Source of the DNA: a virus
DNA length: 64,000 nt
Direction: 5' to 3' (one strand)
Virus record (IMG/VR): IMGVR_UViG_3300021963_000049
Coordinates: 52,689 to 116,688 of that record
Below the pieces are notes generated by a model. The model did not search any database. It worked only from the letters and a program-made list of their open reading frames with translations, and was not told the DNA's origin. Shown one piece after another: positions 4,874 through 54,000 of this stretch; position 1 is the stretch's first letter, and each line of letters begins with the position of its first letter. A program made the translations under genes and the position numbers.

Positions 4874-5743
4874 TCAGAATATGTATCTTATTGTATTCCA
4901 AGGTATTATCTTATCATGCAATTCTACAAACTGCTTAATATAATCTGCTTTTCTATTATGCTCATACCTAATATTTTTACCTCCATACTGTGATACTTTT
5001 CCTTCTTGTATTTTAGGTACCCATAATAGTTCTTCTCCAGGAAGTTTATGTGCTAGATTATACTTGTGCTTGTCTTCATTATGAGTTAAAAATATTACTT
5101 CAGCTTTGACAGAATTTTGTGGCCAATGATGTATATAACAGTGCTTTCCTATTATATCAAATAAGAACTCATATTCTATTAACCAATTATCATGAACTAT
5201 TACAGGACTAAAATTTAAATGGACATCATAACCTGCATCAAGAAAATCTGAAACAGAACGGAGTCTTTCATCAATAGAAGATGTATTAGGTTCAAGTATC
5301 TTTCTCCACCTTTCAGGCATTATACTAAATCTAATTCTAATTTTACCTTCAGGATTAAACATTAAAAGTTCTGGATTCACATATTTAGTAGCAAATGAAC
5401 CCATAGCAAGTGGATGATCCCGGAAGAAAGCAAATATCTTCTCCCATTCATGATACTTAGCATGTAGTGCAAAATCTTCATTACAAGAGATATCATAAGT
5501 AATAAACTCCCCGGTCTGATTAGGCTTCTCTACATCAGCAAACCATACATGTGAATTAATTTCTGTCAGGATGTCCATAGTATTAGATGCTATAGATAGT
5601 CCTTCCGGCTTATGCCTCTTCATGTAGCAGTAACTACAATTATATAAACACCCATGTCCAAAACTTGGAGAGATAAAATCTGTAGATCTACCAGATGGCC
5701 TAATTATCATAGACTTCCTAGTAACTTTCTCTACCAGACTCAT
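4874..5743 (-). CDS. splB: spore photoproduct lyase family radical SAM protein
   Basis: GCLYNCSYCY (CxxxCxxC), YDISCNED (conserved SPL Cys region), FATKYVN, KIRIRFS, EPNTSSIDERL, HLNFSPVI. Confidence 0.85.
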   Translation of the reverse strand: MSLVEKVTRKSMIIRPSGRSTDFISPSFGHGCLYNCSYCYMKRHKPEGLSIASNTMDILTEINSHVWFADVEKPNQTGEFITYDISCNEDFALHAKYHEWEKIFAFFRDHPLAMGSFATKYVNPELLMFNPEGKIRIRFSIMPERWRKILEPNTSSIDERLRSVSDFLDAGYDVHLNFSPVIVHDNWLIEYEFLFDIIGKHCYIHHWPQNSVKAEVIFLTHNEDKHKYNLAHKLPGEELLWVPKIQEGKVSQYGGKNIRYEHNRKADYIKQFVELHDKIIPWNTIRYIF

Positions 5744-5927: not shown

Positions 5928-6185
5928 TTAAAGTTCATCAAATTGTTTCTGTAACTCATCTAGTTCAACAGTTACTAACTCTATCTCTTTTTCAATAGCT
6001 TCCTGCATTATACTTTCATTTCTAAAATATAAGTCATCCAGTATATTGTGTGGACCAACTCTGAACTCTAATTTTATTTTTGACAAGTTACAACCTTTAG
6101 CATGATGTAGTTTATTTCTATAAGTATAGAGTGAATTATATTTTTCTTTTAACTCTTTAGCTTTATTAAATATATTGTCTTCCAT
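5928..6185 (-). CDS. hypothetical coiled-coil protein
   Basis: ORF track 5928..6233; likely start MEDNIFNK just after the upstream stop. Confidence 0.6.
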   Translation of the reverse strand: MEDNIFNKAKELKEKYNSLYTYRNKLHHAKGCNLSKIKLEFRVGPHNILDDLYFRNESIMQEAIEKEIELVTVELDELQKQFDEL

Positions 6186-10222: not shown

Positions 10223-10642
10223 TTAAAATTCCTCTATAATCTCTAATTCATTAGTGCTTAAATAAGTAGCATCATCTTTTGTAGTACCATTATCTAACAC
10301 ATTTTTATATGAAACTTGGTACTGAGAATACTCATGGTAGCCTCTAAATTGTCTTACAGTTACAATTACTTTGTCTTCATCATCTGCAAATCTTTCCCGG
10401 ATTCCTTCTTTGTTACTACCATAACCTAATCTTTCAACTTTAACTTTACATAAAGTCCCATCAGGTATGATATCTGGTAGCTTATTACCAAGCATAAGCT
10501 TAAAGAAATAATCTACAGCTGATGAATTACTACAGATCATGGGAGTAAGTAACTTAACAAACTCCTGTGAATTTGGGTCTTTAATTACCTTTTCTAATGC
10601 TTTTGCAACATCAGAGTCATCATATGTTACAGATATTCTCAT
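10223..10642 (-). CDS. hypothetical protein
   Basis: 139 aa ORF. Confidence 0.7.
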   Translation of the reverse strand: MRISVTYDDSDVAKALEKVIKDPNSQEFVKLLTPMICSNSSAVDYFFKLMLGNKLPDIIPDGTLCKVKVERLGYGSNKEGIRERFADDEDKVIVTVRQFRGYHEYSQYQVSYKNVLDNGTTKDDATYLSTNELEIIEEF

Positions 10643-10644
10643 GC

Positions 10645-10863
10645 TCAGTCATTAATTCTTCTATAATCTAATACTTTAGCTAACAGAGCTTCATTAAAGT
10701 TTGTAAAGAACTTTTTATCAATCATCTTGTGATTAATTACTGGCTCCTCACAGCTATAGCATGTAGACTTGATACCTGTCTTAATTATTTCTCCTTCCGG
10801 AGTCATAATATCTCTCTTAAGATTAAATCCTAAGACTGATGTAATTAAATAACTATCATTCAT
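10645..10863 (-). CDS. hypothetical protein
   Basis: ORF track 10645..10893; likely start MNDSY. Confidence 0.6.
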   Translation of the reverse strand: MNDSYLITSVLGFNLKRDIMTPEGEIIKTGIKSTCYSCEEPVINHKMIDKKFFTNFNEALLAKVLDYRRIND

Positions 10864-11179
10864 GGCTTCCAAATAAATTAGACATAATCTCACTAACAGT
10901 AGACTCCTTCCTGTGGTGGTCTACTATCTTTTGAAATATTAACATACTCATTGCAATTTCATTCTCATGTTTGCAGTAATTTATTATTTTTTCTAGCATA
11001 AGATGTAACTCTGAGTTACCATCAAATGCCTCTGCTGTGTTCTTTAGCAATTCTTTTACTCTATCCTCAGAGATCCCAAGAATTTCATGCATAAGTTCAC
11101 TGTTATCATCAATAAATAATAACTTAAATTTCCCATCTGTTGGGCATGCTTTTTTTCTTCTGAACAGTTTCATAATCAT
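10856..11179 (-). CDS. hypothetical protein
   Basis: The ORF track start (11263) lies inside the tRNA; likely start MIMKLF/MKLF. Confidence 0.6.
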   Translation of the reverse strand: MIMKLFRRKKACPTDGKFKLLFIDDNSELMHEILGISEDRVKELLKNTAEAFDGNSELHLMLEKIINYCKHENEIAMSMLIFQKIVDHHRKESTVSEIMSNLFGSHE

Positions 11180-11231
11180 AATTTTAAGATGTAATTTACT
11201 AAATATTTGAGTTATACACAAAAGTGCATAG

Positions 11232-11303
11232 TAGTTCCACCTGGACTCGAACCAGGAATACAAGCTTAGAAGGCTAGTGTTATATCCCTTTAACTATAGA
11301 ACT
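11232..11303 (-). tRNA. tRNA-Arg (anticodon UCU, reads AGA)
   Basis: Minus strand: AGTTCTA-TA-GTTA AAGGGATA TAAC-A-CTAGC CTTCTAA GCTTG-TATT-CCTGG TTCGAGT CCAGG-TGGAACT-A; full cloverleaf, one mismatch in the anticodon stem, no encoded CCA. Confidence 0.92.
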
Positions 11304-11325
11304 AAAAACAGGGTAGAACACCCTG

Positions 11326-11565
11326 TTAGATAAATAAAAATATAAGTGTAATAGTATAGATTATTGCCAGACAAATAGCACCAGCTATTATTATTTTTGG
11401 TCTTCTTTGTGTTTTATAATCCTCAATATTGCTTAATATTCTAACAATATTGTACTCTACTTCAGAAAGAAGTTCATCCTTTAATATTTTAGGCATACCG
11501 GATCTTTTTACTTCAATCCGGTAATTCTGCCAATATCTAAGTTCTTTCTTTAAATTTCTCATGAT
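11326..11565 (-). CDS. small protein with C-terminal TM helix
   Basis: ORF track 11326..11586; C-terminal IIIAGAICLAIIYTITLIFLFI; start approximate. Confidence 0.55.
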   Translation of the reverse strand: MMRNLKKELRYWQNYRIEVKRSGMPKILKDELLSEVEYNIVRILSNIEDYKTQRRPKIIIAGAICLAIIYTITLIFLFI

Positions 11566-11648
11566 ACAAATGCTGCTAGTGTGCATATTGCTGCAAAGTA
11601 AATTAAAATAATCAGATTTGTTGTTTTCATAATCATAAATTTTAAGTA

Positions 11649-11846
11649 TTAGTATCTAACAGCACATGCTCTATTTCTTTTCTTAATGAGTCTTGCTCTT
11701 TTTCTACTGTAGTGCTTCTTGTAATTGTATCCCTTAGATTTTTTCTTAACTCCATCTCCAGGACCAATCTCAGTAGTTACAGACTCAGAAACTAGAGTAG
11801 CTTCATTAGAAGAAAGGCATAATGCCATAATCATAATTTTAATCAT
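11649..11846 (-). CDS. small basic protein with hydrophobic N-terminus
   Basis: 65 aa ORF. Confidence 0.55.
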   Translation of the reverse strand: MIKIMIMALCLSSNEATLVSESVTTEIGPGDGVKKKSKGYNYKKHYSRKRARLIKKRNRACAVRY

Positions 11847-11878
11847 TGTTTATTTATTTATTTGTTTTGGTTACTAAT

Positions 11879-12139
11879 TTAATTGTTGCTGTCATCAGCA
11901 TATATTCTTGCATAGAATTCTCCATATGTTTCACCTGGTAAAGGTCTTCCATACTTAGCTTCAAATTCTTCAGCAGAGTATTCATCTTCATCTGGCTCCG
12001 GATTATCAAATATGTACTCTTCATGTGATATACAGTCAAAGCACTTGTTGTACTTGCTATTATCATAGTGATCAGTAGCAATTACATAGCTTTCTGTAAT
12101 CTCATTGTTACATACTCCACATATTGGCATGTTCTCCAT
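11879..12139 (-). CDS. small Zn-finger/acidic protein
   Basis: CGVC...CFDC. Confidence 0.65.
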   Translation of the reverse strand: MENMPICGVCNNEITESYVIATDHYDNSKYNKCFDCISHEEYIFDNPEPDEDEYSAEEFEAKYGRPLPGETYGEFYARIYADDSNN

Positions 12140-12145
12140 AAGTTC

Positions 12146-12415
12146 TTATTTAAGTTCACTAACTTTTTTCATTATATCTGTAACTTCTTCCGGTGTTAAA
12201 TGCCCAATAACATCATTAGTAATTGGTGTATTATAGCATATCTGAGAGTACTTATCACCCGGTGCCATGTATATAATTGCCAATTCATATAATCCTTGTC
12301 TACCACCATAGGTATAAAGACCGCGGATTACTGAGACACCATAATGGTTAGGAAATATGTGATGAGCATTCTCTCCCATCTCATCATGCTCAAATTTTAA
12401 ATCTTCAAAGGTCAT
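12146..12415 (-). CDS. conserved small phage protein
   Basis: FPNHYGVSVI...YGGRQGLYELAI...TPITNDVIGHL motif widespread in phages. Confidence 0.75.
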   Translation of the reverse strand: MTFEDLKFEHDEMGENAHHIFPNHYGVSVIRGLYTYGGRQGLYELAIIYMAPGDKYSQICYNTPITNDVIGHLTPEEVTDIMKKVSELK

Positions 12416-12589
12416 AAGTTTAGTTTTAAGTTCTTAATTAAGTTTCTATAAGTTAATAACCCCTCTGCACTCAGTTGTAATACTTCATAGCCTATAGACC
12501 ACAAATAAATTGTGTATGGAATAATTCTTACATACTTCATATTACAACTGCTCACCCTTGGGAAGTGAGAATGGTGCATTAATAAATAG

Positions 12590-13245
12590 TGTTGGCTCTC
12601 AGATCTTTTCAGCCCCGCACTATAAACGGACAATCTTTTTATTTGCATAACAATTCGGGTAACTCACATCCCTAGGTAGGTCGGTACTAAGAGTTATAAT
12701 TGTACCTAGTTAAATATGCATGCCTCTTTCATGGTCACATGCTCCCAAATATAAATTAAGCTCTCAGAGGTGCAATTACAATAAGCCATACTGATACATC
12801 AGTCAATATGATGGTTCTTGTAAGCTTCCAGAGAGCTTAATTAATAAGTTTACCTTGCATACTCTTACAAGGATTAGTTATTTCTGTCTTCCAGCGGTAC
12901 TTCTACCTGCAATTATATTACTCCAATTGCATAAATTACTTTAAGTATAAAGCTTTCGCATTTCACTTATGCCTTTCTTACAAAGATGATTAGTCTTCTC
13001 AACCCTTACAGAGGTCTAGTTAGGAGTTACATGCAGCTAACAAGTCATCATCTTGTTTCTTATAATCCTACTGTAATAAGATTAAATCACTGATTTAAAT
13101 AGTACTCTCACAAGGTTGCAACCCTTGAGGCTCATGTTGGCATATACGGGCTACTAATACCGGTTTACCTGCAATTGGATGAGAGTAAATAAACAGTTTG
13201 GCTTTCATACTTTCTCAGCCCCGACTGTTAACGGACAGTATTATA
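12590..13245 (-). ncRNA. cluster of putative structured non-coding RNAs
   Basis: No credible ORF; several long inverted repeats, a duplicated pseudoknot-like motif and a tRNA-like element (see findings). Confidence 0.6.
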
Positions 13246-13249
13246 CTAT

Positions 13250-13435
13250 TTAATAAAATTCATAGAACTCCGGATACAGGTATTCTCCAAGTCCCATAAG
13301 AAGAGAAGACCTCTCTCCTTCTAATTCTTCTATAGTAGAATTATCAAGTTCTTCTAGTTGATCTTTAGACATCTCTTCCTGATTCAGTCTTAAGTACAGA
13401 TCTTTGATCTCTTCAATCAGATTCTTTCCAATCAT
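13250..13435 (-). CDS. small acidic protein
   Basis: 61 aa ORF with an A-rich leader. Confidence 0.6.
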   Translation of the reverse strand: MIGKNLIEEIKDLYLRLNQEEMSKDQLEELDNSTIEELEGERSSLLMGLGEYLYPEFYEFY

Positions 13436-13453
13436 AATCTTTGGTTTTAAAAT

Positions 13454-13636
13454 TTATAAATCTTCATTGTACACAAACTCATCTGTTTTAATCCAGTTGA
13501 GTATTTCTTCTTTGTAGGCATACTCTATAGTTATTTGATTAGTAATAACTGTGTAAGTAGTTCTGCCATCTACATTGTCCTGTGGAGTAACAACTCCTAT
13601 CCATAAATAAATCTGGAATATTAATTTGCTAAACAT
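13454..13636 (-). CDS. hypothetical protein
   Basis: 60 aa ORF. Confidence 0.55.
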   Translation of the reverse strand: MFSKLIFQIYLWIGVVTPQDNVDGRTTYTVITNQITIEYAYKEEILNWIKTDEFVYNEDL

Positions 13637-14006
13637 ATTTCCCGGAGTCTTTAACTGTGAAACACTAAATGGATAATAGTAAGTATAGCAGTAATGCCTA
13701 TAATAGCATATACTAAGAGTAAGTCTTGCTTTTGTTTGTTCATAGCTATATATTTAAGTTAATTGTGAGTGAATATTCTTATTCTGAGCCTGTTGTTAGA
13801 GTTTAGTTATAGTGGAGAGTTTGATTCTCTACTTTAAGTAAACACACTTAACTGTCTAGTTTCCAGCAACTTATAAGTTTATTTTTAAGTAATTTGTGGG
13901 AATACTAAGCTTCATTATATCATAGTATTACACATTACTTAAGCTTCTATGTCTTAAGTATTAAGTATTAAAGAGTAAGTATTTAGTATTAAGTATTAAG
14001 TACACA

Positions 14007-14103
14007 ATTCCCACTTGGTCAAAATTCACACCGGCAGAATAGTTACAAATTCCCACTTGGGTATATACTATACTATATATACTATACACATATTCCCACT
14101 TGG
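14007..14103. repeat. three direct repeats ATTCCCACTTGG (iteron-like), candidate replication origin
   Basis: Copies at 14007, 14049 and 14092 (42 and 43 bp apart), next to an AT-rich TAAGTA-repeat tract. Confidence 0.65.
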
Positions 14104-14241
14104 GTATGTATTTAGTACTAATTACTAAAAAATAAAAAAGCAATGCTTTAGCATTGCAACTCAATTGCAGTAAAGGGTTAGAAAAAAGAGGAATCTAATT
14201 ACTAAAAAAAAGAAATGGGGTTTATCCCCATTTCCTTATTA

Positions 14242-14679
14242 TTACATTTCTGTAATGTTTGCATCTGTTCCATCAGATACTGGTTCTGCAAATAATGCAT
14301 TAACAGCCTTATTGCTTGCAACTGGTCCCATAACTTTGTCAAGGACTCTTGATGCAAACTGAGCTTCCAATGCAGGAGATATTTTTGCAAGAGCATCAAT
14401 CCTGCTTATATCCTTACGGCTCTCTGAGCCATCCAATGTATAATTACCATCTTGCTTCTTATACAATGGCAACTCATCTCTTAATGCATCCATATACATT
14501 GTTCTAAACTGCGGAGTTCCATCTGGTGCATTAGTTGGATACTTCTTGAATTGCGGGCTATTAATATAATCCTGCATTTCTTCAGCACTACCATACACAT
14601 TATACAAATGGAAAGTTTGTCCTTTACCTGCTCCTTCTTTTCTTTGGATGTAATTTCCAACATAAACTGCTTTAATCAT
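14242..14679 (-). CDS. early protein, hypothetical
   Basis: 145 aa ORF with its own terminator (14203-14235) and an upstream CTAACCCT motif. Confidence 0.8.
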   Translation of the reverse strand: MIKAVYVGNYIQRKEGAGKGQTFHLYNVYGSAEEMQDYINSPQFKKYPTNAPDGTPQFRTMYMDALRDELPLYKKQDGNYTLDGSESRKDISRIDALAKISPALEAQFASRVLDKVMGPVASNKAVNALFAEPVSDGTDANITEM

Positions 14680-14763
14680 AACTTTTGTTTTTAATTTATT
14701 AATAAATAATCATATCAATTCCAGTGTAGGGTTAGTAAAAAGAGGAAAAAGAAAAAAGAGAGT

Positions 14764-14997
14764 TTATCTCTCTTTTGGGATTGCAGATTTAAAAGCTTCC
14801 TGCATATCCATTTTATGTATAGCATCTATACATAGCTTATTTATATAACCTTTGGTATTTACTGCTTTTCCATACCATTCAGATTCAGCCTGCTTGGTTT
14901 CTTCTATTTCTGCTATTATGCTATTATACACATCTGCATATTCAGGATTTTGCCTCATTCTTTCCAGGCCATCTATTATATAAAATATCTTTCTCAT
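14764..14997 (-). CDS. early protein, hypothetical
   Basis: 77 aa ORF preceded by CTAACCCT. Confidence 0.7.
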   Translation of the reverse strand: MRKIFYIIDGLERMRQNPEYADVYNSIIAEIEETKQAESEWYGKAVNTKGYINKLCIDAIHKMDMQEAFKSAIPKER

Positions 14998-15063
14998 ATT
15001 ATATAGTTTTAATTTATATTAAGTTTAGGGTTAGTTAAATAAAAAAAGAGAGCTTGTCTCTCT

Positions 15064-15270
15064 TTATTCTAGCCCTTTTCTGATTATATCTAAACATACT
15101 GCCCATGCATGATATTCATTTTTATCAGATTCAAGTTCAGTGTTTATATACTCATGGGCAAGTTTATTTAGCATATGTTCTATATCTTTAACAAGTTTGC
15201 CATGTGTTACATCTTTGTCCATAAGATTTAGAAATACTTTTTCTAAAACTTTTTTTTCTATTGCATCCAT
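15064..15270 (-). CDS. early protein, hypothetical
   Basis: 68 aa ORF preceded by CTAACCC. Confidence 0.7.
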   Translation of the reverse strand: MDAIEKKVLEKVFLNLMDKDVTHGKLVKDIEHMLNKLAHEYINTELESDKNEYHAWAVCLDIIRKGLE

Positions 15271-15339
15271 ATTATAAATTTTAATTTATCATCAGTCTTG
15301 GGTTAGAAAGAAGAGGAAAGAAAAAAAGAAGAGTCATGA

Positions 15340-15591
15340 CTATTTAGTCATGATCTCTTCGGCACCACAGATGAAGATGGCTTCATAGCCTGCTTCATTT
15401 GTGTAAAGCTTGTAGCTTATTTTATAAAGGCCTTCAGACTTTATATAATTAGCAACAGCTTTCTTACTGACTTTGGGAAGCCATAGCTTATCAGAGTCAG
15501 TATTGACTTTCTTTATATTATAAAGGAAGTCATGGGATTTGTTAGACATGATGCTCACCAGAGCATCTTGGAATGGCAAAGACTTTTTCAT
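15340..15591 (-). CDS. early protein, hypothetical
   Basis: 83 aa ORF preceded by CTAACCCT. Confidence 0.7.
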   Translation of the reverse strand: MKKSLPFQDALVSIMSNKSHDFLYNIKKVNTDSDKLWLPKVSKKAVANYIKSEGLYKISYKLYTNEAGYEAIFICGAEEIMTK

Positions 15592-15629
15592 ATGATAAAT
15601 TTTTAATTTATCTCAAGTTTAGGGTTAGT

Positions 15630-15775
15630 CAGCATGCAAGAGCAAGCAAGCTTTTTTTGACAGAGGAAAAAAAAGTGCAGCGCAGTTCTGCATGAGCAAG
15701 GCCACCTGAGAAAGCAGGGGGGTACCACCTGCGGCTTGAGGGGTGGGGGTGGCCGCGCTGGGGGATCCTCACAAA
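15630..15775. other. GC/G-run-rich island at the strand switch; candidate packaging site or genome terminus
   Basis: G runs at 15717-22, 15740-43, 15745-49 and 15760-64 in an otherwise AT-rich genome. Confidence 0.5.
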
Positions 15776-34911: not shown

Positions 34912-36531
34912 ATGGCAACTCCAGTTTTAAACAATGGTATCTTTCTACGGGATACAGCCTATGCGGCAACTTCACACGTAGATTCTTACCACTTGGTTAA
35001 CATGTTGAAGGATGCAGAACCAATGGACTTAGGTCCAGTAGACCTTTGGGCAATGGCTCAGAAGGTGGAAATGCCTCTTTACCAAATGTCTAGCTTTGGT
35101 GGTAAAAATGTAATTATGGTTGACAATGCTCGCGGTGAGTATAAGTGGCAGACTCCAGTATCTGTGGATCTTCCTTATATCATTGAGGATATTGAACCAG
35201 ATAATAGCTTCAAAGGTGTAGATGGTACTACTTTCCGCATCAAACTTAGCAGAAGAGAATTTGGACATGGGGATATTATTACCTATGACAAATACAATGG
35301 GGCTGAGATGTACATTGTACCAACTGAAGATATTTTACCAGTTAATGATGGATTTATCTATACTGTTCAGTTAGTAGACAATGACAACAACCGTTTCTTA
35401 GATAACAAGTATTTATCAAATGGAACTAAGGTATTTAGAAAAGGTTCTGCTAGAGGTGAGTATGGTGAGAGATTCTCTGACATCCAAACAAGAACTGGTT
35501 TCCGTGAATTCTACAACTTTGTAGGTGGAGCTGAAGCACATGTTCATTACTCTATTTCTTCTAGAGCTGATTTGATGATCAAAGGTGGTATGAATGCAGA
35601 TGGTACAGTTCCTGTAACTGAGATCTGGAGAAACTTTGGTGCAACTAATGATCCTTCTATCACTTCATTAGAAGACATGGTTAAGGTAATGGGTAAAGAC
35701 AAAGTAAAGAAAGCATTTGATAATGGAGACTTATCAAGAACTTTCTTGACTACTATGGAAGCTGCTCACTTAACTAAAATTGCTACTGATATTGAGACTT
35801 ACTTAATGTGGGGACAAGGAGGTAGAGTTAAGCAAGATGGTCCAGATGATCTAAGATTATCAGTAGGTCTTTGGAAGCAGTTGGATAACTCTTTCAAAAG
35901 AGTATACAACAAGAATAACTTTACACTTGATTTGTTCCGTGGAGAAATCTACAACTTCTTCAATGGTAAGGTTGAGTTCCAAGGTCCAGATCCAAAGAGA
36001 TCTTTGATTGTACAAACTGGTATGGGTGGAATGAGAATGGTAAATGAAGCAATTAGGAGAGAAGCAGTATCTTCTGGTCTTTTGATTCAAGCTGCAGATA
36101 TCGGTGCTATCACTGGTAAAGGTATGGACTTGAACTTTGGATTTGCTTATACTTCATATGTAATTCCATTCTTGGCAAATGTTAAGTTTGTTCTTAACCC
36201 AGCATTTGACAATGTTCATACTAATGATATTGAGAACCCAATCATAGATGGTTTCCCATTATCTTCTTACTCATTCATTATCTTTGATATCACAGATAAT
36301 ACTAATGATAACATCTTCTTATTAAAGTTATCTTGGGATAACCAACTTAAGTGGTGGTATCAGAATGGTACAATGGACTATATGGGCCGTACTCAAGGGT
36401 TCCAGTCTTCTGGCCAATTCAATGGTTACCGTGTTATGATGTCTCAAACAATGCCAGCTATCTGGGTTAAGGATCCAACTAAAGTCCTTAAGATTGTTAT
36501 GAGAAACCCAATCACTGGTGGATCATTCTAA
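34912..36531 (+). CDS. major capsid protein
   Basis: 539 aa, highly biased codon use, position after portal/scaffold, followed by a terminator (36544-36580). Confidence 0.85.
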   Translation: MATPVLNNGIFLRDTAYAATSHVDSYHLVNMLKDAEPMDLGPVDLWAMAQKVEMPLYQMSSFGGKNVIMVDNARGEYKWQTPVSVDLPYIIEDIEPDNSFKGVDGTTFRIKLSRREFGHGDIITYDKYNGAEMYIVPTEDILPVNDGFIYTVQLVDNDNNRFLDNKYLSNGTKVFRKGSARGEYGERFSDIQTRTGFREFYNFVGGAEAHVHYSISSRADLMIKGGMNADGTVPVTEIWRNFGATNDPSITSLEDMVKVMGKDKVKKAFDNGDLSRTFLTTMEAAHLTKIATDIETYLMWGQGGRVKQDGPDDLRLSVGLWKQLDNSFKRVYNKNNFTLDLFRGEIYNFFNGKVEFQGPDPKRSLIVQTGMGGMRMVNEAIRREAVSSGLLIQAADIGAITGKGMDLNFGFAYTSYVIPFLANVKFVLNPAFDNVHTNDIENPIIDGFPLSSYSFIIFDITDNTNDNIFLLKLSWDNQLKWWYQNGTMDYMGRTQGFQSSGQFNGYRVMMSQTMPAIWVKDPTKVLKIVMRNPITGGSF

Positions 36532-51081: not shown

Positions 51082-54000
51082 ATGGCAGAAAATAATTTAC
51101 AAGATACCAGTAAATTAATTACTAATACATTTGTTAAGGGTTTAAATAAAGATTCAGATCCTTCATATGTGTCTGAAGGTATGTGGACACATGCTGTAAA
51201 TGCTGTTAATAATAGTGTAGAAGGTGATGTAGGTTCATTATCTAATGAAGTTTCAAATTATTTATGTGCAACGGCAGGTGAGACTATGCCACTAAATATT
51301 GCAGAAAAATATATAATAGGAGCAATATACTTATACTCTGATAAATGGGCAATATTTACTGCAGGTCACAATGCATTAGGACAACCTGTTATGTCAGAGA
51401 TTGGACTTCTTGAAGAAGATAGATGTATATATAGACCAATAGTACAAGACATCTGTTTAAGATTTGATAAAAGATATCTTATATCCGGGGCTTCTAGAGA
51501 AAAAGAAGATTGCACCTGGCAAGTATATTGGGCTGATGGAAAAAATCCAGATAGATATTTAAATATAGGAGATCCTAAAACTTGGCCACCTAGTGATTTT
51601 TCATGGTTAGGTGGTGGTGCTTCTTCTATGAACTATTATTCAAATGGTACACAGCAAATGCTTTGGCCAGGAGTTGCATGGAATCAGGATTGTGAACTTG
51701 TAGATAATTGTAACATATGTACAGATCTTAATTCACTTGACTGTGACCAAACAAGATTAGCAAGATTAATGGAAACACCTTGTCTTAATTTAAGACTTGG
51801 TAATCAAGGTGGAACACTAGCAAATGGAACTTATTTTGCAGTTATTACATATACTATAAAAGGTCAAAAAGTAACTGATTATTTCTCACAAAGTAATAAT
51901 CAATTTATATATACTGTTAATGATCTAGAAGGATCTTTAAACTTAGAAGTTTCTGCGGACTCTGAAAACTTTGATGAGTTTGAGTTAGTAATTGTACAAA
52001 ATATAAATCAAGGTACAGTTGCAAAAAGAATGGGTGTTTACTCTACTAAGACTACTTCAATTTCTATAGATCAAATAGATCCGACAAACATTACTGTACC
52101 AATAGAACAATTACCAATTCAAACTCCTGTTTATGAGAAGTCAGATCAAATAACAGAAGTTAATGAATATTTACTTAGAGTTGGTCCTACATCTAAATTT
52201 GATTTTAATTATCAACCTCTTGCTAATTTGATTAGATCAAGATGGGCATCTGTTGAGTATCCAGCTGATTATTACATAAAAGGTGGTAATAAAACAAACT
52301 ATCTTAGAGATGAAGTTTATTGCTTTTTTATAAGATGGGTGTATGATACTGGAGACAAGTCTTCATCATATCATATCCCAGGTAGAGCACCAAGAGATTT
52401 TACTATTCCTTTAACCGGAGCTTTAGTAAGTGAAACACAATCTTTAGTAAATCCAAATACACTAACTCCAGGAGAATCAGTATTTCAAGTATATAATACT
52501 GCAAATACATTATCAAGTCCACTGATTGGTTCTAACACAGATGATGGTGGAACAGTCATAGCAACTGGAGAAATGGGCTATTGGGAATCATCAGAATCTT
52601 ATCCAGATAATAGACCTGATATATGGAACTCATCAAATTACTGCTGGACTAATGTTCCAGTAGATCCAGTAACTAGTCTTCCTATACCTAATACAAATTA
52701 TGATTTGTGTGGTCAAAAAATTAGACACCATAAGTTTCCAGAAAACTATATAAATAATAATAGTACAACTAATGTTATTCACTTTAGAAGAAATGTAAAC
52801 TCAAGTACTACAGGGCCTCAAAACTTTATTAGAATACTTGGAGTATATTTTGAGAATATAATATTACCAAAGGATAATGATGGTGAAGATATTCCGGGGA
52901 TTGTAGGCTTTGAAATATTAAGAGGTTCTAGAGAAGGTAATAAAACTATTATTGCCAAAGGAATGGTCAATAACTTAAGAAGTTATGAAATAAGAGGTGG
53001 TAGCAAAAAAGGAAGAATTGGTTTATATCCAAACTATCCATTTAATACTATCTATCCACTTAATAACCAAAGCACAAACCCAGGTCTTCATAACTTTAGT
53101 TATAATGATCCATATATAAAAAATGAAAAGACTAATGGTGATTATGTAAATCAAATAGTTCCAAAAGATGTATTTACATTTCACTCACCAGATACAATGT
53201 TTAGAACTCCTTTCTTATCTACAAGTGAGTTTAAAATATATGGTCACTTAAAAGGATATGCTGAACAACAGTTTTTGTTTCCAGACAAGCATCCAAAGTT
53301 TAAGCTTCTATCAAATCTTGCAATACTTCCTATGATTATCACTGGGGTTGCCCAAGGTATTATTTCAATGCTTGGTAAGAAAACAGTAAACCAACCTGAT
53401 ATATTAGGAGCTAGTGGTGTTTCAGATGCAGCAGGTGTTGCAGCAGCTACTTATACAACTGCAGCAACAGCATTAGGACTTCCAGTAACTGGACCATTAG
53501 CACTTTATAATACATTTGTAAATAACTATTATTCATCTGGTACAGCATTATTAGATGTAGCAGCAGAATTTATACCTTTTGTACCAACAGCAGCAGTTAC
53601 TGCAGAAAATACACTTATTACAGCATTAAATGCAAGTGCTATTGCTCAAGTAAATGCTCCAGTAATTAGAACTGGCGCAATAGAATTACCAGACTTTGCA
53701 TATTTACCCGGAGCCGTTAAAACATTAGGAGCTATAAATCAGTTAGCATTTTATTTTTCAGAAGGTGCAGAGATAGCTTTAAGAATATTATATGCAGTAG
53801 TTACATATAAGCAATATGCATTACAGAGTATGTCATATGGTTTCTATGATAATATGAATAGTAATCCGGTTTCAGAAATATTTAGATTTAAAATCCAAGA
53901 TAGTTTTTATATAAGAGATAATATTCAAGAAGTTAATAGGTATCAAACAAGCTCCGGTGTCTGGACTTCTTATATGATAAACAACTTAAAGAGATCAGAT

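Follow-up and report, generated by a model that had tools for sequence, protein, structure and literature searches.

Two copies of a knotted RNA motif lie on the minus strand of the window, the 64,000-nucleotide (nt) stretch of viral DNA studied here (positions 52,689 to 116,688 of the IMG/VR virus record IMGVR_UViG_3300021963_000049). Comparison with homologues from other viral and metagenome contigs shows a motif that would fold independently, as an RNA of about 52 nt read in the same direction as the genes around it. We consider it a well-supported RNA family that, judging from our sequence and literature searches, was previously uncatalogued, although an earlier description elsewhere is possible. 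Regarding its role, our tentative preference is for a 3′-boundary module that would cap an upstream RNA beside a cut or termination site. Few new natural RNA folds have comparative support of this extent, and at about 52 nt this one is small enough for bench work, crystallography and cryo-electron microscopy.

The fold of the two copies

An earlier note on this DNA, made from the letters alone, had placed a duplicated motif on the minus strand, and both copies were confirmed at those places, 606 nt apart. The window has two matches to the core pattern TGTCCG-N5-14-CGGGGCTGARAA, and 100 dinucleotide shuffles have none; across the whole 116,688-nt virus record the matches still number only two. 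Both copies form four helices, P1 to P4, as follows.

12586..12637, minus strand: motif copy A, 52 nt; covariance-model match of 80.2 bits, E 1.3e-18
12636-12633/12604-12601, minus strand: helix P1 of copy A
12629-12627/12617-12615, minus strand: helix P2 of copy A
12623-12618/12591-12586, minus strand: helix P3 of copy A
12614-12611/12597-12594, minus strand: helix P4 of copy A
12637, 12632-12630 and 12610-12605, minus strand: junctions of copy A, respectively A(-1), J1/2 UGU and J4/1 GAAAAG
13192..13242, minus strand: motif copy B, 51 nt; covariance-model match of 60.6 bits, E 2.2e-13
13241-13238/13210-13207, minus strand: helix P1 of copy B
13234-13232/13223-13221, minus strand: helix P2 of copy B
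13229-13224/13197-13192, minus strand: helix P3 of copy B
13220-13217/13203-13200, minus strand: helix P4 of copy B

In the outer helix P1, the 5′ flank pairs over 4 base pairs (bp) with the stretch after GARAAR, and it covaries between the copies as had been claimed (AGAU/AUCU in A, AUAC/GUAU in B); the pairings CCG/CGG (P2) and GGCU/AGCC (P4) are present as well. The loop closed by CCG/CGG had been taken as merely variable, which was wrong, as it is one strand of helix P3: the loop of P2 (the nt before CGGGG) pairs with the 5–7 nt after AGCCAA, by AUAGUG/CACUAU in copy A and AACAGU/ACUGUU in copy B. With P3 present, the full element comes to about 52 nt. Aligning and folding both copies revealed in P3 a compensatory base-pair indel and a compensatory U:A to C:G change.

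P1 and P2 are nested, P3 and P4 are nested, and the two sets are interleaved, which gives the helix-strand order P1-P2-P3-P2′-P4-P1′-P4′-P3′. The fold can be described as an H-type pseudoknot (P2, P3) whose long loop makes the P4 hairpin, the loop of which pairs in turn with the 5′ flank (P1). Since zero nt separate P3 from P2 and P2 from P4 on the central strand, three helices can stack end to end. Thermodynamic z-scores for the nested part of the fold are unremarkable (−0.56 and −1.36), and support for the fold comes from the comparison between sequences and not from folding energy.

Covariation and conservation

About 50 further copies were collected from viral and metagenome contigs by pattern scans and a covariance model, and they amount to 30 distinct motif-plus-tail versions. 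An alignment-free test, in which P1 and P3 were anchored to the invariant cores of 23 distinct variants, found 4 of 4 pairs of P1 in all 23 (8 helix versions) and 4–7 pairs of P3 in all 23 (14 helix versions). Cross-pairing the strands of different sequences gave a mean of 0.54 pairs for P1 and 1.13 for P3. In an ungapped alignment of 22 distinct sequences, P3 and P4 pair in 92.1% of cells, compared with 71.9% after shuffling. A model-based alignment (34 distinct rows, four helices) pairs in 97.4% of cells versus 83.7% when shuffled and reaches a covariation score of 0.346 versus 0.107; the observed values were matched by 0 of 500 shuffles, and sliding the partners by 1–3 columns brought pairing down to 30–43%. 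Double-sided changes occur at 7 of 7 pairs in P3, 3 of 4 in P1 and 1 of 4 in P4, where the compensatory version GGUU/AACC is found in three metagenome or viral copies (the second copy of L196, L244 and L245) with two different P1 versions. P2 is invariant and is thus neither supported nor contradicted by covariation. The earlier note's view of the motif as a structured, pseudoknot-like RNA whose changes compensate one another is borne out by this covariation among homologues.

The motif is found in intergenic or leader RNA, and in 40 of 40 model matches examined it shares its strand with the neighbouring open reading frames (ORFs) inspected. It is hardly credible, then, as a signal acting at the DNA level (a hairpin promoter, a recombination or packaging site) or as a chance repeat. 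Some phage polymerases, such as the N4 virion RNA polymerase, do recognise DNA hairpins, and the P1 and P3 pairs in the window are all Watson–Crick; in homologues, however, both helices contain G-U pairs, which would be A-C on the other strand, so that the motif strand is the gene-sense strand. Besides, four interleaved helices would be senseless as a DNA cruciform, and a chance repeat is excluded by the shuffles and the pairing and covariation tests.

About 24 junction nt are invariant. An A precedes P1 in 29 of 30 versions and a G follows the 3′ strand of P1 in 30 of 30, while the junction after P1 reads UGU in 25 of 30, UAU in 2, CGU in 2 and CAU in 1. A likeness to loop A of the hairpin ribozyme (AGAA plus GUC) was dropped, as A replaces G in 3 of 30 versions, no loop B is present and Rfam gives no match. 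A k-turn in the GA-rich junction was also considered and set aside. Two UGARA pentamers had been described as kept: the first is conserved in homologues, and the second is not, reading UG-NN-A (GAA, GUA, GCA, GAG, GGG or GGA, six versions among 30). The proposed double T-loop of two U-N-N-R-A pentamers falls with this second one, and we saw nothing that bears on tRNA binding, the function suggested along with it.

Part of this invariance is imposed by the searches, as GGGGCUGA, AA, UG and AGCCAA were each demanded by some search pattern. Three differently anchored patterns and the model search arrived at the same core, with the P4 variant as the sole deviant.

Homologues and their distribution

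The first relative, viral locus L133, was found by synteny through the PHROG 4074 gene downstream of copy A. Two early scans were set aside: among at least 117 stretches listed by a loose-pattern scan of the collection, all but the virus's own record were GC-rich chance matches, and a scan requiring TGA-N-AGCCA gave 11 chance matches, because that TGA is not conserved. Improved patterns yielded 8 true copies among 41 viral stretches; with a second improved pattern 9 of 9 viral stretches were true, the divergent L179 included. A metagenome scan gave 42 true stretches of 49 (one, L188, without its 5′ half; the other 7 by chance), and an altered-P4 pattern added 2 more viral copies. The covariance model, built from 24 sequences and searched against 41 sources, re-found the copies and added a second, divergent one in L196; it returned 38 full-length matches at E <= 3.3e-11, a weak match at E = 0.13 that is spurious, and the truncated L188. 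The copy in L188 (1746-1789, plus strand) retains the 3′ two-thirds of the motif, with P4 and the 3′ strand of both P1 and P3, but P1 and P2 have lost their 5′ strands; it is apparently decayed or recombined.

Rfam 15 (4227 models, with ribozymes, riboswitches, GOLLD, ROOL and RAGATH among them) has no match overlapping either copy at E <= 10 in window positions 10500-15500; at the gathering score it calls only a tRNA-Arg in the whole window, and in 31 related loci tRNAs plus one Pistol ribozyme elsewhere, with the motif unmatched. The Rfam check put forward in the earlier note thus gave no known family. Searching the whole block with blastn against 50,697 GenBank phage records gave no match, and the motif alone gave two chance 23-nt matches in GenBank phages (E = 6). 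Seven pattern matches among 185,579 species-representative genomes are all by chance, without the 5′ half. A literature search, with subscription journals and supplementary files outside its reach, found no description of the motif.

The virus record is judged 99% complete and the window is its right-hand 64 kb. A 539-codon ORF (window 34912-36531) matches the Crassvirus major capsid family, and the source is therefore a crAss-like phage. Judging by the run labels, the source contigs are from aquatic metagenomes. Besides the two copies here, one strong match (E <= 1e-13) is present in each of four other records of 117, 80.5, 79 and 66 kb, three of which carry a crAss capsid; the 66-kb record is without one. 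In metagenome contig L196 two copies stand on either side of a 118-codon ORF.

These counts bear on the idea that the copies bracket a non-coding block and process the RNAs between them. The bracketing holds in this genome; it does not in the four related one-copy records, and the pair in L196 brackets an ORF instead. Processing of RNAs between copies is not general, since most relatives are single-copy, often in a plain gene-to-gene spacer without a block of non-coding RNA (ncRNA). The motif does lie at boundaries of ncRNA modules, which makes a role in RNA processing or nuclease blocking reasonable.

What follows the motif

An upstream stop codon falls within about 18 nt of P1 in 9 of 36 distinct contexts, and the next ORF with an ATG begins 15–71 nt past P3 in 23 of them; in the remainder, several hundred non-coding nt come before the motif or a conserved ncRNA module comes after it. 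Grouping the first downstream ORF of each of 32 contexts gives 24 clusters (22 singletons, one cluster of 3, and one of 7 for a 303-codon protein), and no gene association follows from this. The promoter and terminator scan did not flag the motif, whose closing helix is short and often A/U-rich.

Directly past P3 the contexts differ. In L179, from the 66-kb phage G004, the motif occupies genome nt 942-999 and a type III hammerhead starts at the very next nt (36.5 bits, E 1.6e-5, with a canonical core and under the gathering score of 48.5); its predicted cut is 5 nt past P3. The four contigs of the L182 group have a hammerhead-like element after P3, with stems I, II and III, CUGAUG-U for CUGAUGA, and GAAAC; Rfam at E <= 1 gave no match to it, and the label is given from its layout only. 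By inspection, the last 2 nt of P3 in L182 overlap hammerhead stem III. In L204 a terminator (8-bp hairpin plus U7) begins 2 nt past P3, the motif lying between a stop codon and this terminator ahead of the next gene. In the window and several metagenome contexts, the next RNA module or the closing stem of an ncRNA block begins 4–6 nt past P3. The other tails are rich in U: their first 6 nt contain 3.57 U on average, compared with a coding-strand T fraction of 0.305, and at least 4 U occur in the 6 nt after P3 in 17 of 30 versions. The three U-poorest of 16 helix types are those with a hammerhead, hammerhead-like element or terminator next; L180 has one U in its tail and no hammerhead or terminator device.

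At a second site in G004, an 8-bp GC-rich plain hairpin abuts the hammerhead, in the place that the motif takes in the first unit. G004 as a whole has two units (L246 760-1048, L249 2040-2577), composed of a 55-nt promoter-like repeat, a leader, a type III hammerhead and small genes; one is located at the left end and the other about 4 kb from the right end, and ACGC/TACA-type microsatellite-like repeats precede both.

The diversity of these devices raises the possibility of a riboswitch-like sensor that controls a terminator, either built in as P3 plus a U-tract or separate, or else a hammerhead, which would make a natural allosteric ribozyme. One core would then be combined with different downstream devices (the U-rich tails, the L204 terminator, the L179 and L182 hammerheads) much as riboswitches combine with expression platforms; the conservation pattern is aptamer-like, the overlap of P3 with stem III in L182 would suit such a switch, and the topology resembles that of the preQ1-II riboswitch. 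We nonetheless hold a sensor to be rather improbable: the downstream genes are unrelated, another ncRNA often follows in place of a gene, no Rfam riboswitch family matches, and inspection turned up no convincing alternative pairing of the motif with the terminator in L204 or with the hammerhead in L179.

A proposed role of the motif at the 3′ boundary of transcripts

We favour, tentatively, a module that ends the upstream RNA, whether messenger RNA (mRNA), leader or ncRNA array, with a cut or stop occurring within a few nt after P3. In some phages the cutter would be the adjoining hammerhead; one phage has an intrinsic terminator next. In the others a host endonuclease of the RNase E type would presumably cut, either within a single-stranded U/A-rich tail or where the next ncRNA module begins. 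The knotted fold would stay on the upstream product as a 3′ cap hindering 3′-to-5′ exonucleases.

Our preference has three reasons. Of the four helix types whose tails are not U-rich, three have P3 directly followed by 3′-end-forming devices, three unrelated ones in all; a simple hairpin replaces the motif at the paralogous hammerhead site in G004; and transcription has to continue through copy B, which must afterwards be parted from the ncRNA block. Efficient termination by copy B is not possible, because the block begins about 6 nt later and leaves no room for a promoter.

Several points weigh against a boundary module. No RNA ends at the motif are seen in the contigs from four metatranscriptome runs, whose coverage leaves the motif out. 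The roughly 24 invariant junction nt and fixed helix lengths would seem to exceed what a simple roadblock needs and are typical of catalytic or ligand-binding cores, part of that invariance being the product of the search patterns. With 1–2 copies per genome despite many intercistronic junctions, it is not a generic boundary signal, and these phages use ordinary hairpin-plus-U terminators elsewhere. As P3 is short and often A/U-rich, resistance to exonucleases would need topology. The hammerhead-like element of the L182 group has U for core A9 and no Rfam call, and L179 and L182 may share one ancestral arrangement.

The main rival is a new (tenth-or-so) class of small self-cleaving ribozyme, with a fold unlike the known classes, that would cut polycistronic transcripts at one junction; we regard this as possible though doubtful. 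In aquatic crAss-like and other phages, such a ribozyme would release the RNA flanked by its copies, the ncRNA block here and the 118-codon mRNA in L196, and a unit bracketed by two copies does occur twice independently, in the window and in L196. In its favour is the compact double pseudoknot of about 52 nt with invariant junctions and freely covarying helices, which the twister, HDV-like (hepatitis delta virus-like) and pistol ribozymes resemble in size and style. The presence of 1–2 copies per genome with no gene association is usual for phage ribozymes. In the crAss-like contig L162, moreover, the motif and a bona fide Pistol ribozyme take intercistronic slots of the same type. The Pistol ribozyme (6070-6132, plus strand; 74.3 bits, gathering score 34.5) directly follows an ORF ending at 6069, lies 21 nt ahead of the next ATG, and is 2.3 kb from the motif in the same gene run. 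Hammerheads adjoin the motif in L179 and the L182 group, and pistol, hatchet and twister-sister were reportedly found through their neighbourhood to known ribozymes (by Weinberg et al. in 2015). On the other hand, most conserved motifs found near ribozymes have reportedly proved to be non-cleaving. Beside a hammerhead a second cutter looks redundant, a plain hairpin stands in for the motif at the G004 site, no Rfam 15 ribozyme family matches even at E <= 10, and the helix-strand order is unlike the HDV-like fold. A ribozyme explains the invariant core, the copy number, the ribozyme-rich neighbourhood and the bracketing better than a boundary module, and the adjoining hammerheads worse. Because hammerheads cut in some relatives and a plain hairpin replaces the motif in G004, we lean slightly to a non-catalytic role.

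It seems unlikely to us that the motif binds RNA polymerase or a protein of host or phage, either as a nut/put-like operator or antitermination element or as the functional core of a small released decoy RNA. Invariant junctions across very different phages (the three crAss-capsid records and the 66-kb one without) would fit a conserved host partner. So would a single copy per genome. In L179 a promoter-like repeat stands immediately before the motif where an operon starts, and in L204 the motif lies between stop codon and terminator, placements that recall the positions of lambda nutR and HK022 put; release by the hammerhead would free an RNA of about 185 nt in G004, a length deduced from the promoter-like repeat. 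Yet the copies have no common neighbour gene that could encode a partner. Cis-acting antiterminator RNAs, moreover, act tethered to the polymerase, and a hammerhead cut 5 nt downstream would break the tether.

Neighbouring non-coding RNA modules

The motif copies of the window are accompanied by other structured or conserved RNA.

12638..13191, minus strand: non-coding block between the copies; no ORF of at least 40 amino acids wholly inside, touched only by a doubtful 78-codon frame; its conserved RNA modules are the domain at 13104-13186, a middle part and the stretch at 12716-12748
13104-13186, minus strand: RNA domain closed by the 7-bp ACUCUCA/UGAGAGU; ends and hairpin conserved in L133 and L223, interior variable
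12716-12748, minus strand: conserved 33-nt stretch, 97% identical to one in L133
12455..12580, minus strand: second conserved structured RNA module, beginning 5 nt past copy A; related loci contain 15 distinct copies

Pieces of the block and of the stretch after copy A recur in relatives such as L133, in a different order. The 33-nt stretch, for instance, directly follows the second module in L133 and lies about 80 nt upstream of copy A here. Between related phages, the ncRNA modules are shuffled.

The second module consists of a stem GCAC/GUGC, a hairpin with the invariant loop UUCCCAAGG, a hairpin of variable length and a tail AGAGGGG. Its first hairpin occurs in three fully complementary versions and its second carries inserts of 29–123 nt; L132 has two copies of the module, and comparison with Rfam gave no match. 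The tail AGAGGGG could pair with the CCC of loop UUCCCAAGG. In the domain at 13104-13186, a 5-bp hairpin with an anticodon-like 7-nt loop (U-UGC-A) immediately precedes the 3′ strand of the closing stem; neither ARAGORN nor the Rfam tRNA model calls this domain.

Related RNA is found in metatranscriptomes. Twenty-four runs contain 5–11% of the sampled words of 12100-13500, and in 4 of 4 runs compared the contigs match parts of the block and second module at 85% or more, with variable inserts replaced. These contigs are assembled from relatives and show presence in RNA libraries only, and the motif copies are outside their coverage. In the RNA contig of one relative, a different sequence, which we read as a simple hairpin, precedes the second module in the place of the motif. 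Whichever role the motif has, the block and the module after copy A point to an unexplored cluster of expressed, modular ncRNAs in environmental crAss-like phages.

Genes around the motif

G+C near the motif copies is about 30–38%. The copies are placed within a series of small minus-strand ORFs; the order on that strand is a 61-codon ORF, copy B, about 550 nt free of ORFs, copy A, 125 non-coding nt and the PHROG 4074 gene, with a tRNA-Arg(TCT) 1.3 kb beyond this gene in the minus-strand direction.

13250..13435, minus strand: 61-codon ORF directly upstream of copy B, with TAA at 13252-13250
12146..12415, minus strand: 89-codon gene of phrog_4074, function unknown, E 5.4e-18, downstream of copy A and the second module
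12412..12648, minus strand: 78-codon ORF overlapping copy A and the second RNA module; no family match

Copy B begins 7 nt past the TAA of the 61-codon ORF, which has no PHROG family and no relatives in viral contigs. A near-identical counterpart of copy B in the same context is present in metagenome locus L223, where the ORF upstream of the motif clusters with the 61-codon ORF. Relatives of the phrog_4074 gene occur in seven viral loci, one of which (L133) has the motif. The 78-codon ORF is probably not a gene: in relatives, the distance from its ATG to the motif shifts the frame or meets a stop. A coding reading of copy A through this ORF was dropped, as the frame is kept neither in copy B nor in relatives, and so was a promoter reading of a TATAAT just before copy B, which is absent from copy A and from relatives.

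Two further observations concern the window at large. A phage ORF at 4874-5743 (minus strand) matches the spore photoproduct lyase family (PF20903, E 5.4e-21). An intergenic unit is repeated at 14161-14193, 14715-14747, 15286-15318, 15007-15049 and 15601-15643, and is also seen in L132; on the minus strand it is T-rich, then CTAACCC, then AA/TT-rich, often just after hairpin-plus-U terminators. With its many copies, and distinct from the motif, it is probably the standard promoter/terminator junction of this phage group.

Comparison with known systems

The motif shares with twister, pistol and HDV-like ribozymes a size of about 50 nt, interlocked pseudoknots, invariant junctions, covarying short helices, an intergenic site in phages, often near other ribozymes, and a low copy number; unlike them, it has no Rfam match, and its self-cleavage is hypothetical. 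Should it cleave itself, it would add a class of ribozymes and provide a new compact tool for RNA engineering. The HDV-like fold has the order P1-P2-P3-P3′-P1′-P4-P4′-P2′, its P1, of 6–7 bp, begins where cleavage occurs, and J4/2 contains the catalytic C. We found no membership in the HDV-like or minimal (theta) group: the strand order differs, P1 of the motif is always 4 bp, and no HDV family matches. Minimal HDV-like forms are described as lacking P4 and keeping the nested double pseudoknot (PMC10879173).

The type III hammerhead (RF00008) is a separate element, its stem III beginning at the nt after P3 in L179/G004; the motif differs in having no CUGAUGA plus GAAA core arrangement and is unmatched by the RF00008 model. 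The preQ1-II riboswitch has a similar P2/P3 pseudoknot with P4 inside the connecting loop. It differs in that the motif possesses the extra helix P1, has no sequence similarity to it, no RF01054 match and no link to queuosine genes or any other set of genes. As for riboswitches in general, the 24 downstream clusters from 32 contexts and the lack of an alternative pairing on inspection speak against membership. ToxI-like RNAs, the antitoxins of type III systems, are tandem pseudoknot repeats of 34–45 nt beside an endoribonuclease toxin gene; our copies are not tandem and the 185,579 species genomes hold no true counterpart, so that neither such an antitoxin nor a mimic of one is indicated.

For a boundary module, the closest parallels are the exoribonuclease-resistant RNAs (xrRNAs) of flaviviruses and plant viruses, which also have a compact pseudoknotted fold with conserved tertiary nucleotides at a transcript boundary, and 3′ stabiliser hairpins of processed intercistronic sites, such as the T7 RNase III sites, which likewise stay on one product after a cut. 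Unlike the motif as we read it, xrRNAs block in the 5′-to-3′ direction and in eukaryotic hosts, and the motif has no sequence or secondary-structure homology to them. If it is a 3′ cap, phages of bacteria would control transcript decay with knotted RNAs, as eukaryotic RNA viruses do on the 5′ side, and if it blocks 3′-to-5′ exonucleases by its topology, it would be the first such RNA in a bacterial virus.

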